A stretch of DNA of 63,789 bases, counting the filler. It is 7 parts of 7 records of this genome, joined end to end, with 100 filler letters (N's around TTAATTAATTAA, not from the genome) between each part and the next. Parts side by side here need not be neighbours in the genome. Positions count along the whole stretch, not along the records: positions 13,636 to 19,543 come from SRR31147125_40216; 6 more parts are not named here. One strand, written 5' to 3'. Shown here piece after piece: positions 2,009 to 26,657 of this stretch. The notes under the pieces were generated by a model, which was given only the letters and a program-made list of their open reading frames with translations, was not told where the DNA came from and searched no databases. Numbering within the stretch: position 1 is the stretch's first letter; every line of letters starts with the position of its first letter. A program made the translations under genes and the position numbers.

Positions 2009-5000
2009 ATGTTAAAAAATCAGAGATCATGTAAAAAAGAGCAGCAACAATTATTTTGCAAACTCACAATAGTAACATTAATGTTATTTGTTGCTGCTAC
2101 TGGATTTTATTGCAGTAAAGATAAGGAAACGAAATACCGTGATTATGATTCACTCTCCAGTAGTCAGCTATTACAGGATATCGGGGTCTCACGTGGTATC
2201 TGCGTTGTTTTGGGAGATTCCTTATGTGAATTATCTCGTGCCCTGTCATCCCAGTCCGAATTGATTATTTACACACAATTCAGTAACCAGGACAATGTGG
2301 ACGCTGCCCGTGAAATCATCGATGCAGCTGGCCTGTACGGAACTCGCATCTATGTAGAAAAAGGAGATCTTGCAAAAATACATCTGGCTGATAATATAGC
2401 CGATGCCGTTATTGCGATGGGTGACGCGACGCACATTCCCAAAGACGAAATCCTTAGAGTTTTGCGACCCGAAGGTGTTGCGCTTGTCGGCAGTAAAAAA
2501 TTTATCAAACCTTTCCCTGAAGGTATAGATGACTGGAGTCACCCTTACCATGGTCCGGATAACAATACACAATCGAATGATCAGCTCATTAAAGCACCCT
2601 ATTTAACCCAATTTATTTCAGATCCCAGATATGCTCCGGCAACTCAGGTTTCCGTAGCTTCTGCCGGACGCATATTCAAGGCATTTGGTAATGTAGCCTT
2701 TCATGAACGTGAAGAACCCTATCTCAACACTCTGGTTGCCTTTAATGGATATAATGGCACCATTTTATGGAAAAAAGACCTGGTACCCGGAATGATGGTC
2801 CATCGTAACACCATGATCGCGACACCCTCCACCCTATACCTTGCTGATGACATATCCTGTAAACTCATAGACAGCAGAACAGGGCGTATAAAAGATGAAA
2901 TCATTCCACCCGTCGACAAATCCGGAGGCACCTTTTGGAAATGGATGGCCATGGAAAATGGTATTCTCTACGCTTTAATCGGCGAACAGGAACAAAAAGA
3001 TGCTGTCATGCGCTGGCGACGCACAATTCATGGTTGGCCATGGAACGGTATATCTGAAGGATTTACCCAGGAAGATAATCCATGGGGGTTCGGGCATAAT
3101 ATACTGGCAATTGATCCGGAAAAGAAAAAAATATTATGGCATTACCAGGAAAAAGAAAAAATAGACAGCCGTGCCATCTGTATGAAAAACAATTGTATTT
3201 ATCTGTTCCGATTCGACTCATATCTGACCTGCCTGAACGCGAAAACAGGTAAAATAATCTGGCGCAAAACAAAAGAATCCAATCCTGATCTATTTCAAAT
3301 CCTGGGACATGACTTGAACAGGCAGGGTTATGTAACAAACTGGCGTACGACAGATTATGTCATGTGCAGTGATGATGCTCTTTATTTTGCCGGCCCCCAG
3401 GTGCAAAAGCTGATCGCTGTGTCGACAAAGGACGGAAGCGTTTTATGGCAGAATGATTTTAATAACTTTCAGCTGGTCTTACGAGAGGATGGGCTTTACG
3501 CCATTAGTGGTCCCTGGAACAATAATGTAAGTAAGATATTTAATCCTCTAACCGGTGAAATTCTGGCAGACCTGCCAGCAGGCCGTCGGGCATGTACACG
3601 ACCAAACGGTTCGGCTGATGCCATATTCTACCGTGCAAAGGGTGGCACTGTTCGCCTGGATATTCAGGAAAAAGAGCAACACTGGATTTCACCCATGCGC
3701 CCTCCCTGTCATGATGGTGTCACAATATCCAACGGAATGCTCTACTGGGGACCTTATGTATGTGACTGTCAACTCACAATGTATGGTATGATAGGTCTTG
3801 GCCCGGCTGGAGACTATGACTTTAACCAAAAGGCAACTAAAAGCGAACGACTTGATATATATGACAACCGGGTTGAAAAAACCAGCTTATTACATTCTAC
3901 ATCTGACTGGCCCACGTTTCGCCAATCAAACAATGGATTTGTTTCTACAGATGCTATCATTAGTAATAACAGTCAACGCCTGTGGCGGTATCCTGAAGGA
4001 ATCCTATTGCATCAAGGTACAGATATCCTCGGACATGCCTTTTACAACCAACCAACTGCTCCTATCACCGTTGATGGACTCGTTTTTTGGAGCGGTACCG
4101 ATGGTATCGTCAAATGCCTGGATGTGTTATCCGGAGAATTAATCTGGAAAGCTTTCACAGGTGGCGCCGTTCGATTCCCGCCAACAGTTTGGAAAGACCG
4201 GCTTCTGGTTGCGTCAGGCGATGGATACGTATACAACTATAACGCCCGAACTGGTACATTAAAATGGCGTTTCCGTGTGGCACCGCAGGAACGTAAAATT
4301 CCGGTTTATGGATCACTTTTATCCACATGGCCGGCTGCGAGTGGCGTACTGGTAAAAGACGGTGTCGCGTATGTTGCTGCCGGTATCGTCAACTATGACG
4401 GTACGCACATTTATGCTCTGGATGCAGATTCTGGCGACATTATCTGGCAAAACAATAATTCCGGTCATTTACTACCAAATGCCCGCACAGGCGTTAGTGT
4501 GCAGGGTCATATGCTGATAAAGAAAGATAAACTTTACCTGGCCAGTGGCACATCACTTTCTCCGGCTATTTATGACATAAAGTCCGGCACATGCCTCAAT
4601 GATCCTGAGCCCCTTAAAAACTGCGAATCGACAAGTCCACGTGGATGTGAACTGTACCTGGTTGGCGACAATGTCGTTGCCAGTGGAAAGCCATTTTACA
4701 GCCATCCCGAGCATGACGTTTATGACGCGTCGGTTTTAAACAAAATGCTGCATTCTCCAAACGGCAAAAGAGATATCTTGTGGGTCAATCAAAGCAAGAT
4801 TTATTGTTATCCGTCTCTGGACAAACAACTTTTGAATAAATGTTCCGGTGAGAGAGGATTTATGGGATATACTCCGTCAATCTGGAGCCGGTTCGATAAT
4901 GCTCAAAAAGCCATCTGGGAAGTTGATTGCGAGGAAAGTGTCGCGCTGGCTGTGTGTGAAAACGCTGTTATCATAGCGAAAAAAACACAACTCATCGTGT

Positions 5001-12372: not shown

Positions 12373-13332
12373 TTGGGTTTGGAAAAAGATAAAACCAAGA
12401 AAAAACCTAAAATTCTTGTCGTTGATGATATTCCTGTTAATATTCATTTACTTCAAGCTTACTTAACCAGCGCAGGCTATGATACGCTCGTCGCTCACAA
12501 TGGCGAGGAAGCGTTACGCCAGGTCAGGGCGAACCAACCAGATATTGTACTTTTGGATGTCATGATGCCTAAACTGGACGGATTTCAAACGTGCCGACTT
12601 TTGAAAAACGATAAAAAATCACGATACATCCCCATAATAATGGTTACAGCCCTCAATGAAATTGAAGATAAAGTAAAAGGAATTGAAGCAGGTGCTGACG
12701 ATTTTATTGCCAAACCTTTTAACAAACTAGAGTTATTAGCCCGTGTAAAATCGTTGCTTCGGATTAAATTTTTGCACGATGAACTGCAGGAAAAAGTTAA
12801 ATTATTGGAACAAGCTAAGGAGCGACTTCGATCTTTAGCAGTGACAGATGGTCTGACCGGATTACATAATCATCGATATTTTAAAGAATATTTGTCACAT
12901 GAACTTAGCAGATCTCAACGGCACCAATCACATGTTTCCTTGATCATGATAGATATCGATTTTTTCAAGGTTTATAACGACACACACGGCCATCTGGCTG
13001 GAGATAAAATCCTGAAAACACTCGCCCAATTAATGCGTACAAATATTCGTAGTATTGACGTCGCAGCTCGTTATGGGGGAGAGGAATTTGCCCTTATATT
13101 GCCTGAAACCAACAAAAGTGCGGCTCGAATTGTAGCTCATAAGATTAAAAAACTAGTTGAAGAACACGAATTTCCAAATGAACAAAGCCAGCCAAATGGT
13201 CAAATCACTATTAGCCTTGGTGTAGCTGTTTTCCCTGAAAATGCCAATAATATGGACGAATTAATAAATATTGCAGATCAAAGATTATACAAGGCCAAAT
13301 CCCTCGGTCGAAATCGGGTCGTTGACGTGTGA
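12373..13332 (+). CDS. Response regulator-diguanylate cyclase (REC-GGDEF)
   Basis: ILVVDD...LLDVMMP...KPF receiver; DGLTGL, DIDFFK, RxxD I-site (RSID) and intact GGEEF. Confidence 0.93.
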   Translation: MGLEKDKTKKKPKILVVDDIPVNIHLLQAYLTSAGYDTLVAHNGEEALRQVRANQPDIVLLDVMMPKLDGFQTCRLLKNDKKSRYIPIIMVTALNEIEDKVKGIEAGADDFIAKPFNKLELLARVKSLLRIKFLHDELQEKVKLLEQAKERLRSLAVTDGLTGLHNHRYFKEYLSHELSRSQRHQSHVSLIMIDIDFFKVYNDTHGHLAGDKILKTLAQLMRTNIRSIDVAARYGGEEFALILPETNKSAARIVAHKIKKLVEEHEFPNEQSQPNGQITISLGVAVFPENANNMDELINIADQRLYKAKSLGRNRVVDV

Positions 13333-13535: not shown

Positions 13536-13635
13536 NNNNNNNNNNNNNNNNNNNNNNNNNNNNNNNNNNNNNNNNNNNNTTAATTAATTAANNNNNNNNN
13601 NNNNNNNNNNNNNNNNNNNNNNNNNNNNNNNNNNN
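13536..13635. other. Artificial contig linker
   Basis: 100 nt of N with central TTAATTAATTAA (stop codons in all six frames). Confidence 0.99.
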
Positions 13636-14323
13636 CCCAAGTGGTAGATAGTGGATCACCGAAACCTAGAAACTCAAGTGTTGCTTCTGCCATAATAGCA
13701 TAGATGACCGTACCTACAAAGAGACTACTAAGGATAGACATCATATTCGGCATTACTTCAAAGAAGAGCCTGCGTATTTTGGTTTCACCCAGTGTTTCTG
13801 CAGCATATACAAACTCTCTCTGGCGGATACTCAATGTCTGACTTCTGATAACACGTGCTCCCCATGCCCATGAAGTTATCCCGATAATAAAACCGATTGC
13901 AAGCGGTGATATCTTACCAAGCATAGCAGCCAACACCAGGAGTAGCGGTATATTTGGTATCACCATAATTACATTTATTATAGTTGCGATTATATTATCT
14001 ATTATTCCGCCGAAATATCCGGCTACGACCCCGACAATCATTGCCAAACCCATTGCGATAGAACCGGCAATAACCCCAACTACTATTGATGTACGCCCTC
14101 CATAAAGAGTCTGAGAGAGTACATCTCTACCTAATTGTGTTGTGCCTAGTTTGTGTTCGAGAGAAGGTGGTTGATGAGACTTACCAATTCTATCGACTGG
14201 GTCATGTTTGAGGAATAGCGGCGCTGCGAAACAACTTATAATTATTCCAAGCAGCATAACGGAACCAATAGTAAATTTCAAATTCTGTCTTATAAATCTT
14301 ACTACTTTATTTTCATTATTCAT
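13636..14323 (-). CDS. ABC transporter permease, OppC/DppC-like; 3'-truncated
   Basis: HKLGTTQLGRDV, GYFGG, EAA-like motif REFVYAAETLGE, LEFLGFG. Confidence 0.9.
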
Positions 14324-14324
14324 T

Positions 14325-15314
14325 TTATTTTCCCTGCTTTCTCAGCCTTGGATCGAGAGCAAGAATAAGCACATCTGCACCAAAATTAGCCACGAGAACC
14401 ATACTTGTAATCAGTAATAAAAGTCCCTGAATAAGGGGATAATCACGAGCAGAAAGACTCTGATACATCACCAACCCCAACCCGGGATAATTAAAGACGA
14501 TCTCGACAATAAGCGATCCACCGAAGATATATCCAATACACATAGCGAAAGTTGTTACAATCGGCAGCATCGCGTTGCGTGCACCATAACCAAACATCAC
14601 TCTTGTATCAGGCACACCTTTTGCCCAGCCCATTACAATATAGTCTTCACCAAGTTGGTTAATCATATTGGCTCGCATGACCATGATATTACCAAGACTG
14701 GAGATTATAATTGCTGTAGCTGGCAGTACTGCATGATATAAGACGCTACTTATATACTCCCAGGTAAATCCCGGAAAAATAAGACTATCATAAGCATAAC
14801 CGGTTGGGAACCATTTGAGGTGACTCCCGAAGATAAAGTACAGACTCAATGCTGTTACAATTGCAGGGATATTCGCAAGAATCTGCCCAGTAATAGTGAC
14901 AATACTGTCAAACCTGCCGCCTCTCCTCCACGCCACTAAGATACCTAAGAAGGTAGTTATCGTATAAGAGATAACAATTGCTGAGCCGACAAGGAATATT
15001 GTCCAGGTTACACCACGAGAAAGAGCTTCAGTAACAGATAACGGATAGAACTTGAGAGATGTTCCCCAGTCACCTGTAAAGATATTACCGATATAATCGA
15101 TATAGCTCTTCCAGAGCGGCTGATCGACAAAACCAAACATCTTCTCGATAGCTTTTACTGTCTCTTCACTGACATTACCACCACTTGCATATAATGTTGC
15201 CAGATATGCCTGCACAGGATTACCCGGCATCATTCTAGGCAGGAAAAAATTAATCGTAATAGCGGCGAAAAATGCTATTATATAGAACCCAAGCCGCTGC
15301 AGTAAAAATTTCAT
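14325..15314 (-). CDS. ABC transporter permease, OppB/DppB-like
   Basis: FFLPRMMPGNP, GDWGTS, EDYIVMGWAKG, EIVFNYPGLG, RDYPLIQG, LDPR. Confidence 0.92.
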   Translation of the reverse strand: MKFLLQRLGFYIIAFFAAITINFFLPRMMPGNPVQAYLATLYASGGNVSEETVKAIEKMFGFVDQPLWKSYIDYIGNIFTGDWGTSLKFYPLSVTEALSRGVTWTIFLVGSAIVISYTITTFLGILVAWRRGGRFDSIVTITGQILANIPAIVTALSLYFIFGSHLKWFPTGYAYDSLIFPGFTWEYISSVLYHAVLPATAIIISSLGNIMVMRANMINQLGEDYIVMGWAKGVPDTRVMFGYGARNAMLPIVTTFAMCIGYIFGGSLIVEIVFNYPGLGLVMYQSLSARDYPLIQGLLLLITSMVLVANFGADVLILALDPRLRKQGK

Positions 15315-15338
15315 TTTCTATCCTAATCTCTTTTAACT

Positions 15339-15387
15339 GTTTACTGAACCGGTTACTATTCGGTTATTCAGAACCGGCTCAGTAAAC
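15339..15387 (-). other. Intercistronic stem-loop between the solute-binding and permease genes
   Basis: 16-bp inverted repeat (15339-15354 / 15372-15387); its single mismatch is a G-U pair on the coding (minus) strand. Confidence 0.65.
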
Positions 15388-15428
15388 TCCCATAAATCAA
15401 GTTATTTTAAAGGTTACTACAAATACTA

Positions 15429-17105
15429 TTATTCAACTGGCTTAAGATTTAGCACATGGATAATTTTGTTATCCCAGTCACCCATACCAATAGCAGGGTC
15501 AATGTATGGATCAGATTCATTTGCCCAGCCTGTTACTCGTGAATCATTATAAACAAACCATTTACCATTATAGTATAGTGGAATATGTGGAACATTCTTA
15601 GCATACATCATTTCAATTTGATCAACAATTTCTTTCTGTCTGTCTTTATTAACAGTAACCTTAAGCTCGTTGATAAGTGCATCACGCTCAGGATTTTTAT
15701 CTTTAGTCAAGTTTGATGACCACCATGTAGTACTATTAAAGAATGGCTCAGTCATGGTTTTTTCATAGAATTTATAAATATTCGGAGCAAGACCATTACC
15801 ACTGAACTGTGCATCAAAGTTACCTGTTGTCCATGCTTCTGTATAAGCATTTACTTCCGGAGTAGCTACACTTGCATTGATACCAATTTTACGTAGACCT
15901 TCTACAGCGATCTGACAATTATTAACCCAGTCAGTCCAACCACTTGGAACTTGAATATCAAATTCAATCTTTGAACCATCTTCATTTTCAACCCAACCAT
16001 CATGATCAGTATCTTTAAAACCACCTGCTGCTAGTTCTTCTTTTGCCTTATCAATATCAAACTGTGCAAACTCTTCCCAGATCTTATCAGCTTCAGGATT
16101 TCTCCAACCCCAAAGTGATGGTGGAAGACCAGTTGCAGGGTTACCGCCTTTTACATAACCATAAGAACCAATTTCCATCATGTCCTGACGATTCATAGCA
16201 AGTGAGAATGCTCTTCTGAAATGAATATTTTTAAATGCTTCAAGATTACCTGCATTCTTTGTCTGCATATTCATACAGATACGTACACCATCATGTGAAG
16301 GGAACCAGTATTTCTTTGATTCATCACCAGCAACATATACTTTGTCAATCTCAGGTATAAAGATATGACCCCAATCGATCTTGCCAGCCTGCAACATATC
16401 ATATGCAGCTTCATTTGAGTTATACTGCGGGTAGAGCACTCTATCAACTTTGAGTTTATCTCCCTGCCAGTAATTTGGATTTCTTCCCATTGCAAAAAGC
16501 TGCGGAGTAAAGCGGAGTACTTCTGTAAATGCACCAGTACCGATTGGATTTTCAACAACCATCTTAGCAGGATCTTGGATATCCTTCCAAATATGCTCCG
16601 GCACCATCATTACTTCATTCAACACAGCACTCTTACCAAATGCATTTACATCTTTGAGTACAAATTCAACAGTATCAGCATCAAGCTTTTTTACACTTAC
16701 AAGTTTACCATTGTCTCCCCACATCCCTTTACCATCAATTTCAGGATGCTCTTTGAAGTAATTATAAGTAAAGACTACATCATCAGCAGTAAAATCCTTA
16801 CCATCACTCCATTTAACATCTTTACGAACTTTGATCACAATTGTTTTTGCATCATCTTTCATTATCGCTTCTTCAGCCAACCACGGAATTTCTTCATTAC
16901 TTAACCCGTTATAAATAACTAGAGGCTCATAAGCAAAACCTTTTTGTGCTTCCAGCACATTAGTAAAAGGATTGAAATTTCTATTCCAACCGGTTACTGA
17001 CTGCTGCAATACACTGATTGATACAGGGGAAGCTTTGACAACACTGCTACTGCAAGCTATAAGCATAGCAACACAAAGCAGGCCTATCCACATTCTTTTT
17101 AACAT
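15429..17105 (-). CDS. ABC transporter family-5 solute-binding protein, probably oligosaccharide (cellobiose/chitooligosaccharide-binding type)
   Basis: Signal peptide with possible lipobox LIAC; RNFNPF, YEPL, VKWSDGKDFTADDVVFT, PIGTGAF, VPSGWTDW. Confidence 0.85.
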   Translation of the reverse strand: MLKRMWIGLLCVAMLIACSSSVVKASPVSISVLQQSVTGWNRNFNPFTNVLEAQKGFAYEPLVIYNGLSNEEIPWLAEEAIMKDDAKTIVIKVRKDVKWSDGKDFTADDVVFTYNYFKEHPEIDGKGMWGDNGKLVSVKKLDADTVEFVLKDVNAFGKSAVLNEVMMVPEHIWKDIQDPAKMVVENPIGTGAFTEVLRFTPQLFAMGRNPNYWQGDKLKVDRVLYPQYNSNEAAYDMLQAGKIDWGHIFIPEIDKVYVAGDESKKYWFPSHDGVRICMNMQTKNAGNLEAFKNIHFRRAFSLAMNRQDMMEIGSYGYVKGGNPATGLPPSLWGWRNPEADKIWEEFAQFDIDKAKEELAAGGFKDTDHDGWVENEDGSKIEFDIQVPSGWTDWVNNCQIAVEGLRKIGINASVATPEVNAYTEAWTTGNFDAQFSGNGLAPNIYKFYEKTMTEPFFNSTTWWSSNLTKDKNPERDALINELKVTVNKDRQKEIVDQIEMMYAKNVPHIPLYYNGKWFVYNDSRVTGWANESDPYIDPAIGMGDWDNKIIHVLNLKPVE

Positions 17106-17183
17106 AGTAAAACTCCTGAATTGACTTACAACAAAAACAAAAAAACCCGAAATAATAATAACACAATATTTTCAGCAAAATAT

Positions 17184-17219
17184 AAAAAAAGCAGAACCTG
17201 TAATTTACAGGTTCTGCTT
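17184..17219 (-). terminator. Intrinsic terminator (attenuator) in the leader of the ABC operon
   Basis: Minus strand reads AAGCAGAACCTGTA-AAT-TACAGGTTCTGC-TTTTTTT, ending about 80 nt upstream of the start codon at 17105. Confidence 0.8.
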
Positions 17220-17319
17220 GAAGATACAAAAATATTTAAACTTATTACTGCTTCTTATATATGCTTAATAACAGCACTATAAAACTAAATCTATCAACAA
17301 ATTTATAATAATCAGATTG

Positions 17320-17520
17320 TCAGACCAGACGGCGATAGATTCATTCAGTAATAATTGTGGTTAAACTTTTTAGTCTTCGCAGAACCCTTCCATGCAACAC
17401 AGCACTCTGTCTTGCACGTAGATACTCTACAAAATAAAATTTAAAACTGAATGCAACCGAAGACAAGGTTTTCCTGACACCTTACGCTACTTCGCCGGAC
17501 TGCTCTTAACAGTAGGGTTA
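17320..17520 (-). ncRNA. Candidate structured cis-regulatory RNA, family not recognised
   Basis: GC-richer island in an AT-rich intergenic region, with several complementary segments and an 8-nt match able to pair with the terminator's 5' arm (see findings). Confidence 0.45.
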
Positions 17521-17973
17521 TTGATCATTGTTAAAGAAAACAATATTAACTCTTAAAATGAAACACTCAAGCCATTAATGCTTATCTCACATGCTTCCAA
17601 GTTATAAATATTTGTTTTCTTACTCTTTGAATTAACTATACAATAATATTATTCTTATGCAAATTTTTTATCTCTGTATTCAATAATTTTCTCATTTAAA
17701 ATATAGAAATAACTATCCATTCTTTCAACAAGTTTATCCTATCTTTTATTTATTAACCTAAATAGAAAAATACAAATCACAAAACACTATAACTCATGAA
17801 TCTTCCCAGATTATAACTCTGACACAAGCAATAATAAGATATATAATATATAAATACAAACACAAATACTATTTCACGAAATTGTGCTATTATATTTTCA
17901 CTTTTAGTTGGCTAGGATCCATAAAATAAACTCAGAAATTTTAATAACTCAACATCCTCAAATGAAAAATTAA

Positions 17974-18672
17974 CTATTTTTCAGCAACAATAACTGTAGC
18001 AGGTGACGTATTATCCCAGCAATTCATTTTAAAATCACCATATGAATGAGTATTCTTAAAACCGTTCTTCTCCAATAAACTCACAAGCTTCATTTTACGA
18101 AGTGGAAATAATTCTATCTCACTACTCAGAGTTTTTCCCTCTGTTTTTACTGTCAACTCTCCCCTGAAAATAAACTTTTCCCCCTTAATATAAGTACGTT
18201 TAAAGGTTATCTCTTCATTATCAAGTAGTGGCAAAGCAGCAAGAGCATGATCCAGAATATTATCGTAATTGACAATCTGAAGCAATACTTTCCCCCCAGA
18301 CTCCAACCGCTCAAATACTCCTTGTAAAAACTGGTCTACATCTTTCTCAGAGATATGCACCAGCGTATTACCAAAACATATCACTCCATCATACTTCTGT
18401 TGCAAGGTATTAATTTTTAGCATATTGAGAGTCTGAAAGCTCAACTCTGGAAAACGGTTTCTTGCAATTTCTATAAAATCATCTTCCAGATCAACTCCAG
18501 AAATTTCATATTGTCTCAATGCATTCGTAAGTTTTCCGTTAGCACAACCTACCTCTAAAATCCTACTCTGCTGTTCAGGAAAATTATTCAGCACAAACTC
18601 AACCTGTAAATTACTGAGTGGAAATATATAATCATAATACTCAACTATCTTGCTATAAAATTCATTACCCAT
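17974..18672 (-). CDS. Class I SAM-dependent methyltransferase
   Basis: ILEVGCANG motif I, GVDL, YDGVICFGNTLVH. Confidence 0.88.
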   Translation of the reverse strand: MGNEFYSKIVEYYDYIFPLSNLQVEFVLNNFPEQQSRILEVGCANGKLTNALRQYEISGVDLEDDFIEIARNRFPELSFQTLNMLKINTLQQKYDGVICFGNTLVHISEKDVDQFLQGVFERLESGGKVLLQIVNYDNILDHALAALPLLDNEEITFKRTYIKGEKFIFRGELTVKTEGKTLSSEIELFPLRKMKLVSLLEKNGFKNTHSYGDFKMNCWDNTSPATVIVAEK

Positions 18673-18693: not shown

Positions 18694-19543
18694 TCAACAT
18701 GCAGCTGGAGCAAGAGCTTCCAACAGCTGCTCAATCCCCCTTCCGCTCTTATCTACAGTAAAATTAAAAACATACTTTCCGACTCTTATTATCACACAAT
18801 CAAACTTTTCTTCTTCATCAAGCTTTATATTGTCAATATTATCAAAAGGTATATAAATATAAGAATATGAATAATTAGCTTCGCCCTTCTCCACAAACTT
18901 AGTACTTCTATTAACAACTATCAAATCCTTATCGGTACAGACAAAGATACTGCTGCAAAATGAAATATTCCTCTTAAAGATACGTTTCAACTTACTGACT
19001 AAGCTCTTCTCCCTAGGAGGGATAAAATCTGGCTGATATGCAATCAAACTACTTGTCGGATCATCCTTCTGCAACTTATTGAGTAAATTCAGATATAATA
19101 AATCTAAATCCTCCTGCTCATACCTCAGCTCAGTTACAGTAATCTCCTCGGCTGGTGTCTGCTGTAACTCCTTTATCAAATTTATAAAATCAATCATAAT
19201 ACTATATGATACTGTATTATAATCTATTACGATTATATCATCAGCAATATATAATTCAAGTTTTCCATCAAGCAAATTCTGAGTATTGGTTATTACCCGC
19301 ACATCAGCAAGTTCCACTTTCTCTTCCCTGACCTCATCACCTTCACGCTCTAAAATAGTTATATGATCAGGAAATAACCCCACAACCCTATCATAAAGGT
19401 GTTCATCCGGACTTGCATACTTACGCTCAACCTTTCTAGGTATTTTAAATAATATTAGAGCCGAATCCTGAAGATATTTATACTTATTAAATACAGGCGG
19501 CATAGTATGAACATCATCAATCAAGTAAATCCACGGTCCAAAA
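18694..19543 (-). CDS. Hypothetical protein, 5'-truncated
   Basis: Frame stays open to the contig edge (FGPWIYLIDDVHTM...); YLQDSALILFKIPRKVERK motif. Confidence 0.7.
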
Positions 19544-19772: not shown

Positions 19773-20132
19773 CTATGGCTCTCTTTTAATACGTATTTTA
19801 CCCAATTTTATTAAAATAAAGATTGAAATAATACTAGTACAAACAACACTGTAGAAATATAAATCATAAAGCTTTTTTACATAGTTGGGATTAATAATAA
19901 AGTATCTTAGTAGCTCAATTGGCATAACAAAAACTATATAGATAGAAACGATTGTAAGTATAACTCTGAAAACTCCTTCCTTTATTTTAAACCATTTATC
20001 TTTTGGCTTTTTTGATATCAAATATTCCTGAAATTTACTTAAAAGGATTAAATAAAAACCTATCAATATTCCAATAATTATTGCATAAGCAAATATAAGA
20101 TATTGCATTAAACTCATTGAAATCTCGCTCAT
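19773..20132 (-). CDS. Small membrane protein, putative immunity protein of the RHS toxin
   Basis: 119 aa, three hydrophobic helices, very AT-rich, begins 18 nt after the RHS stop codon. Confidence 0.65.
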   Translation of the reverse strand: MSEISMSLMQYLIFAYAIIIGILIGFYLILLSKFQEYLISKKPKDKWFKIKEGVFRVILTIVSIYIVFVMPIELLRYFIINPNYVKKLYDLYFYSVVCTSIISIFILIKLGKIRIKREP

Positions 20133-20150: not shown

Positions 20151-23100
20151 TTACCATTTGGGCTTATAGGGTGCCATATTAGGACCTGGGCTTGCTATAT
20201 AGTTTAATCCTGTTGAAACTCCACCAGATAAACTTCCACCTACAAGAGCAGAATTTACTGCTGATGCTCCACCTTTGAAAGCTGCCGCACCTGTACCACC
20301 GCCTATTGCTCCAGATAATCCGCTAATGACAAGAGAGGTAATGTCAATATCTCTACATGGATTTGAACGACGCTGTATTAAATAATCAGTCCCAAGGCCA
20401 ATTGTTGCACCTATTGCAGAGTTTGCAATAAGTGAGGTGCCAAATGACACGCCTGCAAGCGCTCCGACACCAGCTCCATACATAGCACCTTGTAATACAT
20501 CGCCATTGTTGAATAACGCATTGACAGCTCCTATTGCTCCCCCAATTGCTGCACCAACCCCAGTGGCTCCAAAATTAATAAACTCACCAGTTGGATCTAT
20601 AAAATTAATCGGATCATTTAGACAATAGCCATACAGATCAGTATCCCCGCCGTCAAAAAGCAGCGGATCCTTGGCCGTCCATCGCCCTGTTTCAGGGTCA
20701 TAATCCCGGAACCCGAACCGGACCAGGCCGGTATCCGTATCGTACAGGCCCCCGGCAAATCCGAACGGGACGGCAAGGCCGGGGTTGCTGTCAGAAATCA
20801 CCGAACCAAAGGTGTCGTATTCTATCTGCTTTATAACATTGCCCAAGGTGTCGACAACCGCCTTCAGGGTCCCGGCCTGATCCCAGGCAAGATAATAGGT
20901 GGTGTTGCTTTTGACCATGGCAACGGGCATGCGGCCGTCTGCGTATTCAAACCGCATAACCAGGTTGTCGGCTCCGTCATATACGGCAAGCAGGCGGGTC
21001 CGTCCCTGCCAGAGGTATTTTTCCGTGATAATGCCGTTGACCTTTTTGGCGATTCTTCGGCCTGAGGGATCACGGACGTACTCTATGATTTTATCGTCAG
21101 GCAGTGTGACTTGTTTGAGTTCGCCCCGGACCGAGTATATATATTCCGTGGTGTCGGGTGCTGTGCCAGGCGGTACGGAGTTATCTGTTTTTCTGAGAAG
21201 AAAGCCGTCAGGGTCGTACTCATAGGATATGTCTCCTGCAGTGAGGAGATGGTCTTCCTCAGAATATGTATAAACCTTATTAAGGATGTTTCGTAGTACA
21301 TTGGTTTCAGAAACCCGGGTGCCGTTGGGCCCGTATTGATAAGACTCCGTAAGGGTGCCGTTTCGGATGACAGTCAACAGCCGTCCCATGGCATCATAGG
21401 TATAGTCATATTGGGTCGAGACTCCGGCCAGGGTTTCGGTTTTCCGGGTGATCCGGCCAGTCTTGTCCCGTTCCAGGTTCCAGGAAATCAGGTCATCGGC
21501 TCCCACGGTCCGGGTAAGGGATTCTATCTCGGCAAATCCGTTATACTCTCTGGCAACGAACAATGCACCCCCTGACAGGGAGACGGCAAGGCCGTTACCA
21601 GGGTGCCTGGTGATTGTATAATTACCGGCACCGGTGAGGAGACCGTCATTGTCCCAGGTGTAATGTACGGTATCACCGGCATAGGTAAAGGATGCCAGGT
21701 TAAAATCATTATTCCATGCATAGGACAGGGTCTGGTTCAGGGAGCCGGCAAAGGTTTCCGATGTAACCAGGTGTGCATCATATCCATAGGAAAGGGTTTC
21801 TCCATCCTTGGCAAGGCTGCCGATCTTTGATCCACAAAGATATGTGTATTCAATGGGGCCGTCCGGGGTCAGGGTCGACCCGAGGCGGTCCAGGCCGGCC
21901 TCATAGATATTTTCTATCACCTTACCTGACGGAAAAACAGTCTTTATGTGTCTGCGGTCCCTATCAAACTCAAAGGCATACCCACCGCTCAGGGGTGGGG
22001 AATATCCGGTATTCAGATTGACCTTATTGTAGCTGAATGAATGATCAGAGGGAGTAGGGGTGGTCAAAACCTTGAGGTTGTCATTGGCATCATAGGAAAA
22101 AAATACACCTGTGTTGTCCGGCCAACTGATCTGTGTAGTTCTGCCCTTTGGGTCTTGGAAAAATGTGGTTTCATTATTTTTCGGATCTATAATTTTATGA
22201 ATAAACCCCTGGGTATTGTACTGAATCTTTGTTTGTCTCCCACCTGTTTCTGACATTGTCAACCGTCCCTTGGCATCGTATTGGAAATCAGTGTCCAAAA
22301 GGCCCGGGATTCTTACGGTTAAAGGCAACAAGGTGTCAGGATTGTAAATAATGTCGGTTGTTCTGCCTTCAGGACTGGTTATGTTTTTTTTACTTTGGGT
22401 GACATCGTGCTCATATTCTATTGTCTTGTCGTTTACAGACCTGGTTTCAAGGATGCGGTAATTGTTCCCTTCACTGATAGTGCTGTAGTTTCTCACTATG
22501 TTTGTGATCCGTGTCAGCCCTGAAGGTGTGGCCTCTGTGGATTGAGTTAAATATTTATAGTTGAATTTTGGATCTATACCGTATTGGAATGTCATTTGCA
22601 GTCCACAGGCATCGGTCTTTTCTGAGGTCAGGCCTGATGCGTCATATAAGGTCTGGCCGCCTGACTCATCCGTAATCACAGAGGAGTAGGCGCCTGCAGC
22701 ATCTGTAAAATCCTTATAGGTCCGCTGGTTTCCCTCTCCTGTAGTGACCTGCGTCAGGATGGAATCATCAGTCGGGTATTCCCGGTTGTAAACCCAATGC
22801 CCTCCGTTTTCATCCCGGATTTCTTTAATTTTGCCGGTTTCTGAAAAGGTATGAAAAAATCTGTTTCCGCCAGGATCCGTCTCGGTTTCCATCTGCCCTT
22901 TTGAGTTGTACTGAAAATCATAGTGGGAACCGTCCGGAAAGGCTATCCGGATCAGGCGGTTGTTATGATCAATGGTAAGTTCGGTTCTCAGGCCTTCTGG
23001 TGAGATAATGGCCGTGGGTATCTGTTCAGGGTTCCGTTCAATCCTGGTGGTATTGCCGAAGGTATCTGTAACGGATGCCAAGGCCTTTGGCTGGGCATCT

Positions 23101-26100
23101 GTATAGCTGAAATTTAATATTGTTTTTCCTGTTTCAAGCTCAATGGTTTTTGAATGTAATCCAAGGTCGTTCACGACATGACCTTGCCCGCTTGCCTCAC
23201 TGAATACATGGGCTTTTTCCGTTTCCAGATACGTATAAGGGAGTAATGGGCCTATTTTACCGATGAGGTTTTGCTGTGAAAAAACTACATAAACAAGACC
23301 TGGCTCATTGACGGCTATATCAGAATAATCCGTTAAAAACTCAGGGGCAACCGGAAAGGTCCCCTCCGTCATATGAGAGTATCCGCCCTGTCCTGAAATG
23401 GTTGTAATGATACCATTTGTATTGATTTTGCGCAGACATCTATTTCCTCGGTCTGAAACGTAAATATTACCTTCTACATCCAGGTCTATTTTGTTAGGAT
23501 ATTTAAACCGGGCTTGGACGGCAGGGCCTCCATCGCCTGAATATCCAGATTCTCCTGTCCCTGCAACAGTGGTTATGACACCGTCAATACTAATCTTCCG
23601 TACAACATGGTTGTTGCGGTCTGCAATATAAATATTTCCCTGCCTGTCCGATTTCACATCTGTTGGCTCGTTCAGACGGGCCTGTTTAGAAGGTCCGCCG
23701 TCTCCTGAATATCCCGAAGAACCGATTCCGGCAATGGTTGTAATAATACCTGAGGGATCCACCATTCTGATCCGGTGATGACGTGTGTCGGCAATGAACA
23801 GGCTGCAGTCATTGTTTAGTAAAATGCCGGACGGTCGTGATAATTGGACAGCGTCACTGGTTGCAGGTTCATTATCCCCAAGAGGTCCTCCAAATGACCC
23901 GGCCACTGTTGACAACATACCATTTTTATCAATCCTTCGTATAAAACCTACCCCGTGCTCTGCTTCAACATCAGTAAAGAACACATTACCCTTATTGTCG
24001 GTCGCCACAGCAACCGGCCCCCACATGGGAACATCTGTTGCAACGACCTCTTTTGCAGTGCTGCTACCGTCCGGGTTGTTCATGAACGGGTCACCAAAAC
24101 TCCCGTTTCCCGCGATAGTAGTCACAACCCCTTGGGTATCAATTTTTCGAATTCTTAGGTTGAATTTATCTGCTATAAAAGTATTGCCGGCAGCGTCAAC
24201 CGCAATTCCCGCTGGATAATTGAAGTCTGCCTGGACGGCCGGGCCATCATCCCCAGAAAAACCGCTATTGCCTGTTCCGCCAACCGGCTCAATCAGGTTA
24301 AAATTATCGATTCTCATGTATTTGTATTCCGAAACAAAACTGCTGACATTACTTCCGTTTCCTTTAAAGAGAACAGTTGGATCTATGGTGCTTATAAAAG
24401 AATGATTGGTCAGGGTCCAGCCTTCTGCAATAGTGGGATTATATCTTTCTGGATTTACTATAGGTGGATTTATCGTGATATTATAAGTTTGCATTTTTTC
24501 TAAGTTTAATCTCGCTTCAACCCTTGTGGCATATTCCGGATACTTTGCAAACCATTTCAGAAAGAGATCTTGAAAGGCCCCGTAATGACCTTTATACAAA
24601 TAATACACCCATATTCTCACTTGAACCGGAGTTATTATTTTCTTTCCCTGAAAATCAAGCCCGTTCCAGAAAAACGGAAAGTATAGATTGGGCAGCGCAT
24701 CAAATGAGTATGTATACTCTTTCCCGGCGATTTCTATCACCAACCGGATTCCTTCAAGGCTCTCTGGAATGGTATCGCCTGATACCGGTATGTTTATCTG
24801 TGTAAAATTGCTTGACAGATTGCTCGTTGAATAATGGAGGCTAAAGTTCGTACCAGGTATTGAAATGCTTTCGTGGAAAATTCGACTCCGTTCGTCTACA
24901 TATGAATTAAATGCTTTCTTACAATCCCTGTTTTCCTCCAATGGCCTATCTATATAAGGAAGAAGGTTGGGATCCGGGTGTCTTACATCTGCTGGAAATA
25001 TAACAGGGGCATTTATATCCCAGGGAGAAAAATGGTCGACTTCAAACCACCACATGTTAATCCCTGGCGGATAATCCTCTGGGTTTTCCAGGCCTGCTGC
25101 TTCGTCGTGGACAGATCCGCTTTGGTTCAAATCATCGGGTTGGCTGTCTCCGTCCGCATCCATTGCGTCTGTTATGCCGTCGGCATCTGTATCCAGAAGT
25201 TTAACCACCCTGGCATTTTTCTTAGGAATCCAACAACCACAATCACGATCATAAAATCCCACAGGGATAATAGTACCGACTTCAAATCCGAGAAAATTTT
25301 CCAGTAAAGCGGTTACTGGCTTTTCAAATGCCACCTTCGTGGCCCCGTCCACGGAAAACTCGGCACAATAGGTGAACGCGGATGTGGGCGGCAAGGCGGC
25401 CGGCATGGACTCCGGGGTAGGGTATTCGGATACACGGACGTCAATACTGTCCAGGGTGAGGACCTTATTTCCATTCTTATCCATGGCATAAGCCCGATTA
25501 TCTCCAGTTGTGACAAGCGTGACTGAACGGGTGCCGGCGCTTGTGGTGACCGGGCTGCTTCTATGGGTGAGTATGGTGTCGGGATTGCCGTCAAAGGTAA
25601 ACTTTGTAGATATGGTATCTTCCGGGATCATCTGAACTGTATCCAGAACGCCAAAATCATTCCAGGGGACATAAATTTTGCGCTGTAGGGGAATCAGCCC
25701 CTCTTTATGATATGACACTGCCAGGGTCCGTCCACCGTTACCAGGGATGGCAAACCTTCCCTCCGCATCGGTTTGAGCTGAGCCGTATTCAGGGTGGCCA
25801 AGCACTGTAATAGTTACACCAGGCACCGGGAGCCCGCCCTCTTTTGTTACAAGCCCGGTCATCAGGGCGAAGCGTTTAGGATCATAGGCTGCAAGGGTTG
25901 CATCATCCGGGATCCATTCACGGTACGCGTCTCCAAAAGAGCCCTTGGGCGGGGCCTGGGGCGAGCCAAGCACCTTTATATTTGCTTCAGCCCCGGCAAC
26001 ACCCGCCGGGCCTTTAACTGTGATGGCATAGACCGTTGTATGCCCGGGTGAAACCTGGATATTGCCGCTGGGCGGCACATTGCCGATATCCGGTTCAATA

Positions 26101-26657
26101 AAGGCGGCATCTGCATTGGACGATGTCCAGGATAGGGTTGCCTGTTCCCCGGGATTGATCTGAGTCAGAGACGCGATCAGACTGACTTCAGGCTGTAAGC
26201 CAGGGGCATTATCTGAATATTCCAGGATGCTAAAATGGAACCTGCGCCTGTAGGGATTGCCGAACACCCATTTTTTACTCTGGGTTATTTCGCCAGGGCC
26301 AAGGGTTTGCCCTGGGATACCATACTCAAAATAGGGATTGCCCTCATTTGTGATTCCGTCGGAATTTTCAACGGTCACAAGATTATCGGTGATCCCTCCG
26401 ATAACAACACGAATCGGCATTTGAAGAGGACTTTGGGACAAGTTTTTCACAGCGGCGTTGAGAAAATTTTTATTGTTAAACCGATCAAAGTAAAGTCTAC
26501 TGCGTACCAGTTCCACCTTGTCGTCTGGCAAAGTGGCTGAATAGGCTTTTGGGGTATAACCCATCCCTATACAGGATAATGCCTGAAAAAAGAAACAGAT
26601 GAATAATATCTTGAAAAAAAAATACTTTAAGGATGATTTTTTTGGAATATTCATCAT
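20151..26657 (-). CDS. Teneurin-like RHS/YD-repeat protein with NHL beta-propeller and variable C-terminal domain
   Basis: 2168 aa. Signal-like N-terminus; carboxypeptidase-regulatory-like domain (GLPVPGVTITV..TDAEGRF); NHL repeats (GYSGDGGPA..F.YP.GIAVD); YD repeats; RHS core PFGFAGGLYDTDTGLVRFGFRDYDPETGRW..DP and YCLNDPINFIDPTG; Gly/Ala-rich tail. Confidence 0.9.
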   Translation of the reverse strand: MMNIPKKSSLKYFFFKILFICFFFQALSCIGMGYTPKAYSATLPDDKVELVRSRLYFDRFNNKNFLNAAVKNLSQSPLQMPIRVVIGGITDNLVTVENSDGITNEGNPYFEYGIPGQTLGPGEITQSKKWVFGNPYRRRFHFSILEYSDNAPGLQPEVSLIASLTQINPGEQATLSWTSSNADAAFIEPDIGNVPPSGNIQVSPGHTTVYAITVKGPAGVAGAEANIKVLGSPQAPPKGSFGDAYREWIPDDATLAAYDPKRFALMTGLVTKEGGLPVPGVTITVLGHPEYGSAQTDAEGRFAIPGNGGRTLAVSYHKEGLIPLQRKIYVPWNDFGVLDTVQMIPEDTISTKFTFDGNPDTILTHRSSPVTTSAGTRSVTLVTTGDNRAYAMDKNGNKVLTLDSIDVRVSEYPTPESMPAALPPTSAFTYCAEFSVDGATKVAFEKPVTALLENFLGFEVGTIIPVGFYDRDCGCWIPKKNARVVKLLDTDADGITDAMDADGDSQPDDLNQSGSVHDEAAGLENPEDYPPGINMWWFEVDHFSPWDINAPVIFPADVRHPDPNLLPYIDRPLEENRDCKKAFNSYVDERSRIFHESISIPGTNFSLHYSTSNLSSNFTQINIPVSGDTIPESLEGIRLVIEIAGKEYTYSFDALPNLYFPFFWNGLDFQGKKIITPVQVRIWVYYLYKGHYGAFQDLFLKWFAKYPEYATRVEARLNLEKMQTYNITINPPIVNPERYNPTIAEGWTLTNHSFISTIDPTVLFKGNGSNVSSFVSEYKYMRIDNFNLIEPVGGTGNSGFSGDDGPAVQADFNYPAGIAVDAAGNTFIADKFNLRIRKIDTQGVVTTIAGNGSFGDPFMNNPDGSSTAKEVVATDVPMWGPVAVATDNKGNVFFTDVEAEHGVGFIRRIDKNGMLSTVAGSFGGPLGDNEPATSDAVQLSRPSGILLNNDCSLFIADTRHHRIRMVDPSGIITTIAGIGSSGYSGDGGPSKQARLNEPTDVKSDRQGNIYIADRNNHVVRKISIDGVITTVAGTGESGYSGDGGPAVQARFKYPNKIDLDVEGNIYVSDRGNRCLRKINTNGIITTISGQGGYSHMTEGTFPVAPEFLTDYSDIAVNEPGLVYVVFSQQNLIGKIGPLLPYTYLETEKAHVFSEASGQGHVVNDLGLHSKTIELETGKTILNFSYTDAQPKALASVTDTFGNTTRIERNPEQIPTAIISPEGLRTELTIDHNNRLIRIAFPDGSHYDFQYNSKGQMETETDPGGNRFFHTFSETGKIKEIRDENGGHWVYNREYPTDDSILTQVTTGEGNQRTYKDFTDAAGAYSSVITDESGGQTLYDASGLTSEKTDACGLQMTFQYGIDPKFNYKYLTQSTEATPSGLTRITNIVRNYSTISEGNNYRILETRSVNDKTIEYEHDVTQSKKNITSPEGRTTDIIYNPDTLLPLTVRIPGLLDTDFQYDAKGRLTMSETGGRQTKIQYNTQGFIHKIIDPKNNETTFFQDPKGRTTQISWPDNTGVFFSYDANDNLKVLTTPTPSDHSFSYNKVNLNTGYSPPLSGGYAFEFDRDRRHIKTVFPSGKVIENIYEAGLDRLGSTLTPDGPIEYTYLCGSKIGSLAKDGETLSYGYDAHLVTSETFAGSLNQTLSYAWNNDFNLASFTYAGDTVHYTWDNDGLLTGAGNYTITRHPGNGLAVSLSGGALFVAREYNGFAEIESLTRTVGADDLISWNLERDKTGRITRKTETLAGVSTQYDYTYDAMGRLLTVIRNGTLTESYQYGPNGTRVSETNVLRNILNKVYTYSEEDHLLTAGDISYEYDPDGFLLRKTDNSVPPGTAPDTTEYIYSVRGELKQVTLPDDKIIEYVRDPSGRRIAKKVNGIITEKYLWQGRTRLLAVYDGADNLVMRFEYADGRMPVAMVKSNTTYYLAWDQAGTLKAVVDTLGNVIKQIEYDTFGSVISDSNPGLAVPFGFAGGLYDTDTGLVRFGFRDYDPETGRWTAKDPLLFDGGDTDLYGYCLNDPINFIDPTGEFINFGATGVGAAIGGAIGAVNALFNNGDVLQGAMYGAGVGALAGVSFGTSLIANSAIGATIGLGTDYLIQRRSNPCRDIDITSLVISGLSGAIGGGTGAAAFKGGASAVNSALVGGSLSGGVSTGLNYIASPGPNMAPYKPKW

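Follow-up and report, generated by a model that had tools for sequence, protein, structure and literature searches.

A conserved leader RNA with a covarying three-way junction ahead of ABC-importer operons in Planctomycetota, a candidate attenuation switch

Introduction

Carbohydrate use in bacteria is controlled by proteins, namely repressors, two-component or hybrid systems, and PRD antiterminators. The RAT sites of the BglG/SacY/LicT leaders measure about 30 nt and overlap with the terminator, and the RNAs of processive antitermination include put of phage HK022 and EAR of the Bacillus eps operon. A natural riboswitch for a neutral sugar has long been sought, and we know of none described. 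Gene regulation in the Planctomycetota has been little studied.

The nearest published case that we found is the xyl-doc 5′ UTR of Clostridium papyrosolvens, a leader of considerable length containing terminator-like stem-loops; according to the abstract it keeps transcription blocked in the absence of plant substrate, and its authors speculate that it is a riboswitch (PMC5815224). Excerpts of a 2024 review of hemicellulase gene regulation mention riboswitches only as engineered tools (PMC10766802), and the terms xylosidase, glycoside hydrolase, arabino- and Planctomycetes do not occur in a survey from 2024 that described new non-coding RNAs from 50 genomes (PMC11109978). Our literature search, confined to the main text of open-access articles, returned no description of the motif presented here.

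The leader RNA analysed here resembles the attenuation riboswitches in having a multi-helix junction with conserved junction bases and covarying stems, in lying between a promoter and the first gene with a terminator before that gene, and in holding, in the window (the whole stretch of 63,789 nucleotides, filler included, that was analysed), a segment with two possible partners, one inside the fold and the other the terminator 5′ arm. It differs from them in that it matches no known class, its sensor and terminator are separated by 103–173 nt, and the switching helix is unconserved. With the BglG/SacY/LicT leaders it shares a candidate conditional terminator ahead of what is probably a sugar operon; its conserved element, however, measures about 130–200 nt and lies 103–173 nt upstream of the terminator. 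A structured cis RNA acting at a distance, as HK022 put and Bacillus EAR do, would suit the long variable spacers, whereas the motif is without any Rfam match. As for the xyl-doc 5′ UTR, to the extent that the abstract describes it, the likeness is that genes for hemicellulose degradation follow a long structured leader containing terminator-like stem-loops; that leader belongs to another phylum, nothing points to homology, and the two are likened by description only.

Results

The leader and its operon

The gap on the minus strand of the window, which the initial annotation had put at about 870 nt of non-coding DNA, was confirmed at 868 nt, from a methyltransferase ORF (18672..17974) to the gene of a 558-aa SBP_bac_5 protein (17105..15429). 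The features of the leader and the operon are collected in Table 1. No further copy of the gap is present within the window, except for the inverted repeat of the terminator itself, and the island has no ORF longer than 41 aa that could encode a leader peptide. When a DNA sequencing run was compared with the window, five of the seven pieces matched at at least 99% with no differences, and no variation was seen; in the same run, two pieces matched at below 90%, from other high-depth contigs.

Table 1. Features of the leader RNA and the downstream operon in the window
Feature	Position	Strand	Basis
Sigma-70-like promoter, TTTGCA-17-TATAGT	17635..17663	-	scan, 9/12 matches
P0 hairpin, CUGUU-AAG-AGCAG, directly 5′ of junction motif	17500..17512	-	kept in relatives
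P1 5′ strand, CCGGCGA (relatives: CCGGCAAA)	17492..17498	-	cmsearch alignments
J1/2, AGUAGCGU, after P1 5′ strand	17491-17484	-	cmsearch alignments
P2 hairpin, AAGGU-GUCAGGAAA-ACCUU	17465..17483	-	in MFE fold
J2/3, GUCUUCGGUU	17464-17455	-	cmsearch alignments
P3 5′ strand, GCAUUCAGU	17454-17446	-	cmsearch alignments
P3a, long distal hairpin	17377..17432	-	MFE fold
P3b, short distal hairpin, AGACU-AAAA-AGUUU	17363..17376	-	MFE fold
P3 3′ strand of MFE fold, ACUGAAUG	17349-17342	-	MFE
P1 3′ strand of MFE fold, UCGCCG	17335-17330	-	MFE
A+T-rich spacer between motif and terminator, with local hairpin	17220..17329	-	sequence, fold
Intrinsic terminator, 14-bp stem, 3-nt loop, U7 tail	17182..17219	-	scan; fold -21.3 kcal/mol
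Ribosome-binding site, AGGAG	17117-17113	-	read from sequence
Start codon ATG of binding-protein gene	17105-17103	-	ORF call
Operon downstream of leader, binding protein and two permeases	13580..17105	-	Pfam
SBP_bac_5 solute-binding protein, 558 aa	17105-15429	-	Pfam E 4.9e-66
Permease 1	15314-14325	-	Pfam
Permease 2, without about 70 last residues	14323-13580	-	Pfam

From the promoter at 17635..17663, the leader transcript probably starts at about 17628. An identical TTTGCA-17-TATAGT stands at the equivalent relative place in the leader L027 of a relative (described below), and a blastn match of 31 nt spans the promoter of L004/L005, two leaders of more closely related operons. Since promoter-like sites are no commoner in the scan than in shuffled sequence, the promoter call draws on position and similarity only.

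The strong terminator of the initial annotation was found as described, with a 14-bp stem at 17219–17189, of which 6 pairs are G-C, followed by a T7 run, as is typical of intrinsic terminators. Two terminator-like sites were found in the region against 0.6 expected in the scan. Between the end of the terminator and the binding-protein gene there are 78 nt. Immediately ahead of the ribosome-binding site and ATG, the window has a T-rich tract, GTTTTTTTGTTTTTGTT, that L004/L005 share.

The binding-protein gene and permease 1 are full-length in the window. In tblastn with the L004 operon, permease 2 matched residues 1–229 of 298; the third protein of that operon had no match anywhere in the window, and no ATPase genes follow permease 2. 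The operon is therefore incomplete at its 3′ end, so that the window copy may no longer matter to the cell.

Relatives of the island

The initial annotation could not match the leader to the consensus sequences of T-box, SAM, lysine, glycine, FMN, TPP, cobalamin or cyclic-dinucleotide RNAs. Rfam 15, whose families include these as well as sugar-linked orphan motifs, bore this out: across the window no family reached its gathering score. When searched by E-value, the region 17050–18050 gave 11 matches of 14.8–28.9 bits, all below the cut-offs, ten of them on the terminator hairpin region, one at 17902–17961 and none in 17322–17517. When the motif of the relatives' leaders L027, L028 and L030 was compared with Rfam, no match at E up to 1 was obtained.

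Six relatives of the binding protein, with 65–70% identity, are found in Planctomycetota MAGs (L001–L006). These six closest orthologous leaders are without the island and gave no match with the covariance model R2 introduced below; they carry two to three copies of TGGTCGCGYGTTCA together with a covarying CUCUCC/GGAGAG hairpin. In the window, TGGTCGCGYGTTCA has no copy with fewer than three mismatches, and none in the leader, so the window does not share the leader type of L001–L006. A metagenome scan with the binding protein gave four loci, all at 44% identity or less; because no locus exceeded 44%, metagenomes yielded no closer leaders. Taken alone, the absence of the island from L001–L006 would speak against the initial annotation, which had tied its reading to conservation in homologous leaders; the covariance models changed this picture.

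The homology of the island is visible only with such models; DNA BLAST returned only short matches (best E 0.0145) in the genomes of five relatives, and at a cut-off of E 0.01 it matched none of the order's 37 genomes. Model R1, consisting of the window island and its MFE fold, gave full-length matches in the genomes G001, G002 and G005 (E 1.9e-4, 0.034 and 0.148 per genome). Model R2 was made from these three relatives only, with the window left out. It matched the window at 41.3 bits (E 6.3e-8), with nothing else in the window below E 0.5, and found one strong copy each in G001, G002, G004 and G005 at 172–190 bits. The motif is present in 4 of the 37 genomes of the order and 4 of the 62 of the class, all of them Planctomycetota MAGs. 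When 401 genomes sampled from the phylum were scanned with a strict core pattern, it turned up in 3, each of them a member already known.

Several other matches were set aside. The R1 match L029 was rejected because it covers the ribosome site and the signal-peptide coding sequence of a Peripla_BP_4 gene, and L031 because it was a weak G+C-rich match; the weak R2 matches L036, L037 and L038, being without P1 and P3, were not counted.

Consensus and covariation

In the motif, hairpin P0 is followed by a junction of three helices, P1, P2 and P3, the last of them variable in its distal part. Its consensus reads CUGGUU-N-ACCAG for P0, CCGGCRA... for P1, AAGYARMGW for J1/2, RUCUWCGGUU for J2/3 and GCWUUC... 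for P3; P2 has 5 bp and a 9-nt loop, and the distal P3 of 70–99 nt folds into two hairpins. The conserved element spans about 130–200 nt, and the string UCUWCGGUUGC, running from J2/3 into P3, is common to all five members. Among the relatives the motif cores are 0.91–1.0 identical, and the flanking leader is 0.46–0.67 identical, which is background for A+T-rich sequences. The core of the window is 0.65–0.69 identical to those of the relatives. The spacers between motif and terminator in the relatives (103–173 nt) are unconserved, with an identity of 0.46–0.56 among them.

Since MAFFT misaligned the 3′ end of the window, model-based alignments were used to compare the stems. P0, which reads CUGGUU-N3/4-ACCAG in the four relatives, keeps 5/5 pairs in the five sequences, and one pair differs at both positions (G-C to U-G). 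In P2 (AAAAC-N9-GUUUU in the relatives), three of the five pairs show two-sided changes relative to the window and are still paired. One two-sided change is seen in P3, where the relatives' U-A becomes A-U in the window, and one in P1 (A-U to G-C), the latter only in the R1 alignment to the relatives' GAAAG/UUUUGCUGG. Overall, the R2 alignment has 24 pairs, with 99.2% of cells paired and 5 two-sided changes, and the R1 alignment has 29 pairs, with 95.1% paired and 7 two-sided changes; in neither case did any of 500 shuffles score as high. When the partners were slid by 1–3 columns, pairing fell to 31–57%.

These figures come from five sequences, effectively two lineages, and from two alignments that are both fitted to a model; because the four relatives are almost invariant in their stems, all the two-sided changes fall on one branch, that of the window against the rest. 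Within this sample, the sequences point to a conserved structured domain with covarying stems, as is expected of a riboswitch. The covariation in homologous leaders that the initial annotation had looked to was thus found only in part: the six closest orthologues are without the island, but the leaders of the GH43 glycosidase operons in the relatives show the compensatory changes.

The fold and its alternative

A 351-nt stretch of the leader folds at -99.2 kcal/mol (z -5.31), which none of 100 shuffles equalled. For the 184-nt island, z was -4.15 on the minus strand (0/300 shuffles) and -1.9 on the plus strand (12/300), and such an asymmetry between the strands is the expected product of RNA-level structure with G-U pairs.

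The complementary segments noted at the outset are all present. The closing helix, CGGCGA (17497–17492) with UCGCCG, and the second helix, CAUUCAGU (17453–17446) with ACUGAAUG, both appear in the MFE fold, and the two local hairpins lie at 17483–17465 and 17512–17500. The complementarity of GUCUUCG (17464–17458) to CGAAGAC (17379–17373) also exists and crosses the CAUUCAGU/ACUGAAUG helix, from which a pseudoknot or alternative folds had been suggested; this crossing pair is read from the sequence and is absent from every predicted fold. Hairpin P3b overlaps the CGAAGAC strand, the complement of J2/3.

In the R2 alignment, the window is given other 3′ strands for P1 (UGUUGCAUGG, 17399–17390) and P3 (GAGUGC, 17407–17402) than in the initial annotation, and both of these alternative partners are contained in P3a. 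The window thus offers two mutually exclusive partner sets, since both complement the same conserved 5′ strands. The distal set, that of the initial annotation (17349–17342 and 17335–17330), folds at -59.1 kcal/mol, compared with -33.0 kcal/mol when the proximal set is enforced, and it matches the topology of the relatives with their two distal hairpins. Even when the transcript is cut at 17386, P3a, a local hairpin, holds the proximal strands. From these predictions we take the distal fold as the ground state and the proximal set as a possible alternative fold. The duplex energy between the downstream leader and the 5′ half of the motif was not significant in the window, with 37 of 300 shuffles as good, and in the four relatives 274, 79, 26 and 170 of 300 shuffles were as good or better.

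Gene context in the relatives

The relatives share one order: a promoter-like site, 76–107 nt of leader, the motif, the 103–173-nt spacer, a U-tailed hairpin, about 30–40 nt, a ribosome-binding site and a GH43 gene. The first gene after the motif encodes a GH43 glycosidase in 4/4 relatives (Pfam 1e-90 to 5e-97 in three; the fourth protein is 93% identical to one of them), and these enzymes carry a beta-xylosidase-type C-terminal domain. In five related genomes without the motif, the GH43 protein had no match at E 1e-30 or better. After GH43 comes a protein of 560–563 aa that is 60–62% identical to the binding protein of the window. At the locus L041, four more ORFs follow this protein: two that share 76% and 74% identity with the two permeases of the window, then two of 324 and 333 aa that we take for ATPases from their position and size only.

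In a tree of the binding proteins, that of the window is sister to the A-type clade of L001–L006 with moderate support (88/92), and the GH43-linked B-type proteins form the other clade. One RNA motif therefore stands ahead of B-type operons in the relatives but of an A-type operon in the window, which means that it follows a paralogous transporter pair and not one orthologue. In these predicted 5′ leaders, the motif has the recurrent place ahead of related operons that is typical of riboswitches, with GH43 and family-5 ABC genes downstream in the relatives and only the ABC genes in the window.

The initial annotation had called the operon one for oligosaccharides. This cannot be derived from the protein family alone, because SBP_bac_5 in Pfam takes in proteins that bind peptides, nickel or opines, and NCBIfam, whose matches were all far below cut-off, left the binding proteins without a substrate name; indirectly, however, the GH43 gene beside the relatives' paralogous operon lends the name some support. 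Sugar-binding members of the family-5 binding proteins are known from Thermotoga. With the GH43 genes at the paralogous operon as the only basis, the substrates are probably pentose oligosaccharides.

Terminators and the antiterminator pairing

A U-tailed hairpin lies shortly before the first gene in 5/5 leaders, and the terminator regions fold at -10 to -21 kcal/mol. The terminator scan accepts the hairpins of the window and L030 and rejects those of L027, for its few G-C pairs, and L028, for its 12-nt loop. That every one of the five leaders places such a terminator-like hairpin ahead of its first gene speaks for attenuation.

An antiterminator had also been proposed for the window, where GGUUCUGC (17386–17379) is complementary to GCAGAACC (17217–17210) in the terminator 5′ arm. 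The duplex, at -15.8 kcal/mol, was matched by only 3 of 500 shuffled leaders, and in a transcript ending before the terminator 3′ arm, the MFE structure has GGGUUCUGC paired to the 5′ arm. When the island is complete, GGUUCUGC lies hidden within P3a, whose 3′ strand (17384–17377) makes up most of it. The octamer being buried in the full island and paired with the arm in the nascent RNA fits an ON switch, in which a signal would free it.

The proposal stands for the window but not as a conserved feature, since the complementarity beats chance in only 2/5 leaders, those of the window and L028, and the segment of the motif involved is not the same in the two. In L028 it is the P3 5′ strand that is perfectly complementary, over 12 nt, with 0/500 shuffles as good, and pairing with this strand would imply the opposite switching logic. 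In L027, L030 and L033 the complementarity is at chance level (149, 495 and 364 of 500 shuffles as good, respectively). The long unconserved spacers would also fit a protein-mediated or a processive mechanism.

Discussion

Taken together, the comparisons indicate that the island is a real and conserved leader RNA not filed before, and that it goes with a terminator and with operons that serve to take up, and in the relatives also to cleave, what are probably pentose oligosaccharides. The initial annotation had suggested a possibly new cis-regulatory RNA or a protein-dependent antitermination leader; what holds of this is a conserved, covarying RNA filed under no family, which is absent from the closest orthologous leaders. 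The element is probably an undescribed genetic switch, that is, a cis-acting attenuation leader that is either a riboswitch candidate or a protein-dependent antiterminator.

On balance we lean towards reading the island as the sensor domain of a cis-acting leader that controls transcription stop at the terminator 17219–17182. In the stable fold, GGUUCUGC would be locked in P3a, so that the terminator could form and the operon would be off; a signal tied to the supply of pentose oligosaccharides would remodel the junction; and the freed GGUUCUGC would then pair with the terminator 5′ arm at 17217–17210 and permit read-through. That this signal is a small molecule bound directly, which would make the leader a riboswitch, is conceivable but doubtful, and that it is an RNA-binding antiterminator protein is less probable still. 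The most specific form of the idea, in which the motif is the aptamer of a new class whose ligand is a pentose or an oligosaccharide of pentoses (xylose, arabinose, xylobiose or one of their close derivatives) and turns the operon on by antitermination, is speculative and, as we judge it, unlikely. Several observations go against the sensor reading: the motif–terminator distance of 103–173 nt is unusual for the expression platform of a riboswitch, the closest orthologous operons (L001–L006) carry a different leader, the family has five members with all two-sided changes on one branch, the antiterminator pairing is no better than chance in three leaders, the scan rejects the terminators of L027 and L028, L027 has a promoter-like site between motif and gene, the downstream leader shows no significant complementarity to the motif 5′ half, and the operon of the window is truncated.

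The strong terminator (14 bp, U7), 110 nt past the motif, also looks like the end of an RNA gene, and the region from the promoter (17663–17635) to the terminator (17219–17182) could be read as a stand-alone sRNA of about 440 nt, acting in trans or in some other role. Transcription of the binding-protein gene would then start from a separate promoter within the 78 nt that follow the terminator, where a TG-N-TATTAT can be found by eye before the start codon; in L027, a promoter-like TTCACG-16-TATAAT likewise lies between motif and gene. The initial annotation had named a transcription start in this interval as the sign of an independent sRNA. However, the scan found no promoter-like site on the minus strand of 17184–17105, and in L027, L028 and L030 the hairpin ends about 30–40 nt before the start codon, leaving little room for a promoter. 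Each of the five genomes moreover has a single copy of the motif, always in the orientation of the operon that directly follows it, and that operon is of one kind throughout. We regard a separate sRNA as quite unlikely.

A processive antitermination element, with which the RNA itself would make the polymerase resistant to terminators and no antiterminator helix would be needed, could explain both the long and variable motif–terminator distance (103–173 nt) and the restriction of the antiterminator pairing to 2/5 leaders. Yet no Rfam family whatsoever matches the motif, and the pairing in the window is better than chance; a constitutively overridden terminator would also have no obvious use, so that a signal would still be needed. 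We consider such an element improbable.

We hold it to be just as improbable that the window copy is a relic, drifted ahead of a decaying operon, with its extra helices and its match to the terminator arm functionless and the family functional in the relatives. The incomplete permease 2 with no ATPase genes after it, the core identity of only 0.65–0.69 to the relatives, against 0.91–0.92 between these, and the extra distal segment of the window motif would all be expected from decay. The binding-protein gene and permease 1, however, are full-length, the fold is highly stable and strand-specific, and all the stems still pair through 5–7 two-sided changes, which argues for continued selection on the fold. 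Finally, although short complementarities are common in long non-coding gaps and several were sought at once, a mere chance pattern in an A+T-rich spacer is hardly credible given the match of an independent model at E 6e-8, a fold with z of -4 to -5 and a core conserved against diverged flanks.

The preferred reading, a sensor domain in a cis-acting leader, leaves a compact and testable candidate with a conserved core of about 130–200 nt, and its tie to one kind of operon, GH43 with a family-5 ABC importer, shortens the list of possible ligands. If the pentose-aptamer reading were true, this would be, to our knowledge, the first natural riboswitch for a neutral sugar. Even with a protein as the sensor, it would be the first description of leader-RNA control of polysaccharide use in the Planctomycetota. 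The occurrence of the motif on either of two paralogous transporter operons in different lineages would represent a case of regulatory rewiring.

Make-up of the window leader and its operon

From the sequence, the leader of the window's ABC operon appears to be of mixed make-up. Its final ~40 nt look A-type, since a T-rich tract immediately 5′ of the ribosome-binding site is common to this leader and to those of L004 and L005 (two of the loci with A-type operons, orthologous to the window's SBP_bac_5 operon), and the remainder is that of a leader of the GH43 type. The operon itself looks as if it had been truncated at its 3′ end through rearrangement: permease 2 aligns with only residues 1–229 of the 298 in its L004 counterpart, no ATPase gene follows it (downstream to 13333), and a convergent response-regulator/GGDEF gene borders the end of the operon.

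On the other side, immediately upstream of the leader, there is what looks like a polymorphic-toxin-like cassette, with the gene order 2168-aa RHS protein, two small ORFs (neither with a Pfam match), methyltransferase and leader. This cassette may be the reason for the loss of synteny with the relatives at this point.

Positions of the features discussed
Feature	Location	Strand	Remarks
T-rich tract GTTTTTTGTTTTTGTT	window 17128-17144; L004 and L005 about 2965-2985		just upstream of ribosome-binding site
Permease 2	window 13580-14323	minus	
Response-regulator/GGDEF gene	window 12373-13332		convergent
2168-aa protein	window 20151-26657	minus	RHS repeats; teneurin-like YD-shell, NHL and TTR domains
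Two small ORFs	window 19773-20132 and 18694-19524		followed by methyltransferase
TGGTCGCGYGTTCA copies	L004 2744-2757 and 2875-2888		
TGGTCGCGYGTTCA copies	L001, L002, L003, L005, L006, between about 2600 and 2900		
~85-nt element	L036 1501-1587 (G004); L038 1501-1583 (G005)		kept in two genomes
CRISPR-DR9-like matches	L030 2025-2321 (G005)		upstream of GH43 leader
Promoter-like site TTCACG-16-TATAAT (10/12)	L027 1422-1449	minus	within spacer between motif and GH43 gene

Other elements in the relatives

In the leaders of the orthologous A-type binding-protein operons (L001–L006), TGGTCGCGYGTTCA is directly repeated, with two or three copies per leader; within any one genome the copies do not differ in their central variant. 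The hairpin between the copies covaries from genome to genome (CUCUCC/GGAGAG versus CUCCCU/AGGGAG) and has U and A runs on its flanks; copies and hairpin found no match in Rfam. Together they look like a second regulatory device distinct from the motif, which would be a pair of operators or else an RNA element.

In two genomes, L036 and L038 hold an element that is similar to part of the motif, namely J1/2 and the P2 hairpin (AAGCAA..GAACUUUGGAAAAGUUC). It has neither P1 nor P3 and is followed by a GCGCGC...U-run hairpin. It is perhaps a small RNA with no relation to the motif, or perhaps a protein-binding module that the two have in common.

Five weak, evenly spaced matches to the Rfam CRISPR-DR9 repeat (24–26 bits, below the gathering score of 45) may be a CRISPR array that adjoins the GH43 leader of L030. 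For L027, if the promoter-like site in the spacer is used, part of the GH43 transcription would escape the motif while still having to pass the terminator-like hairpin.
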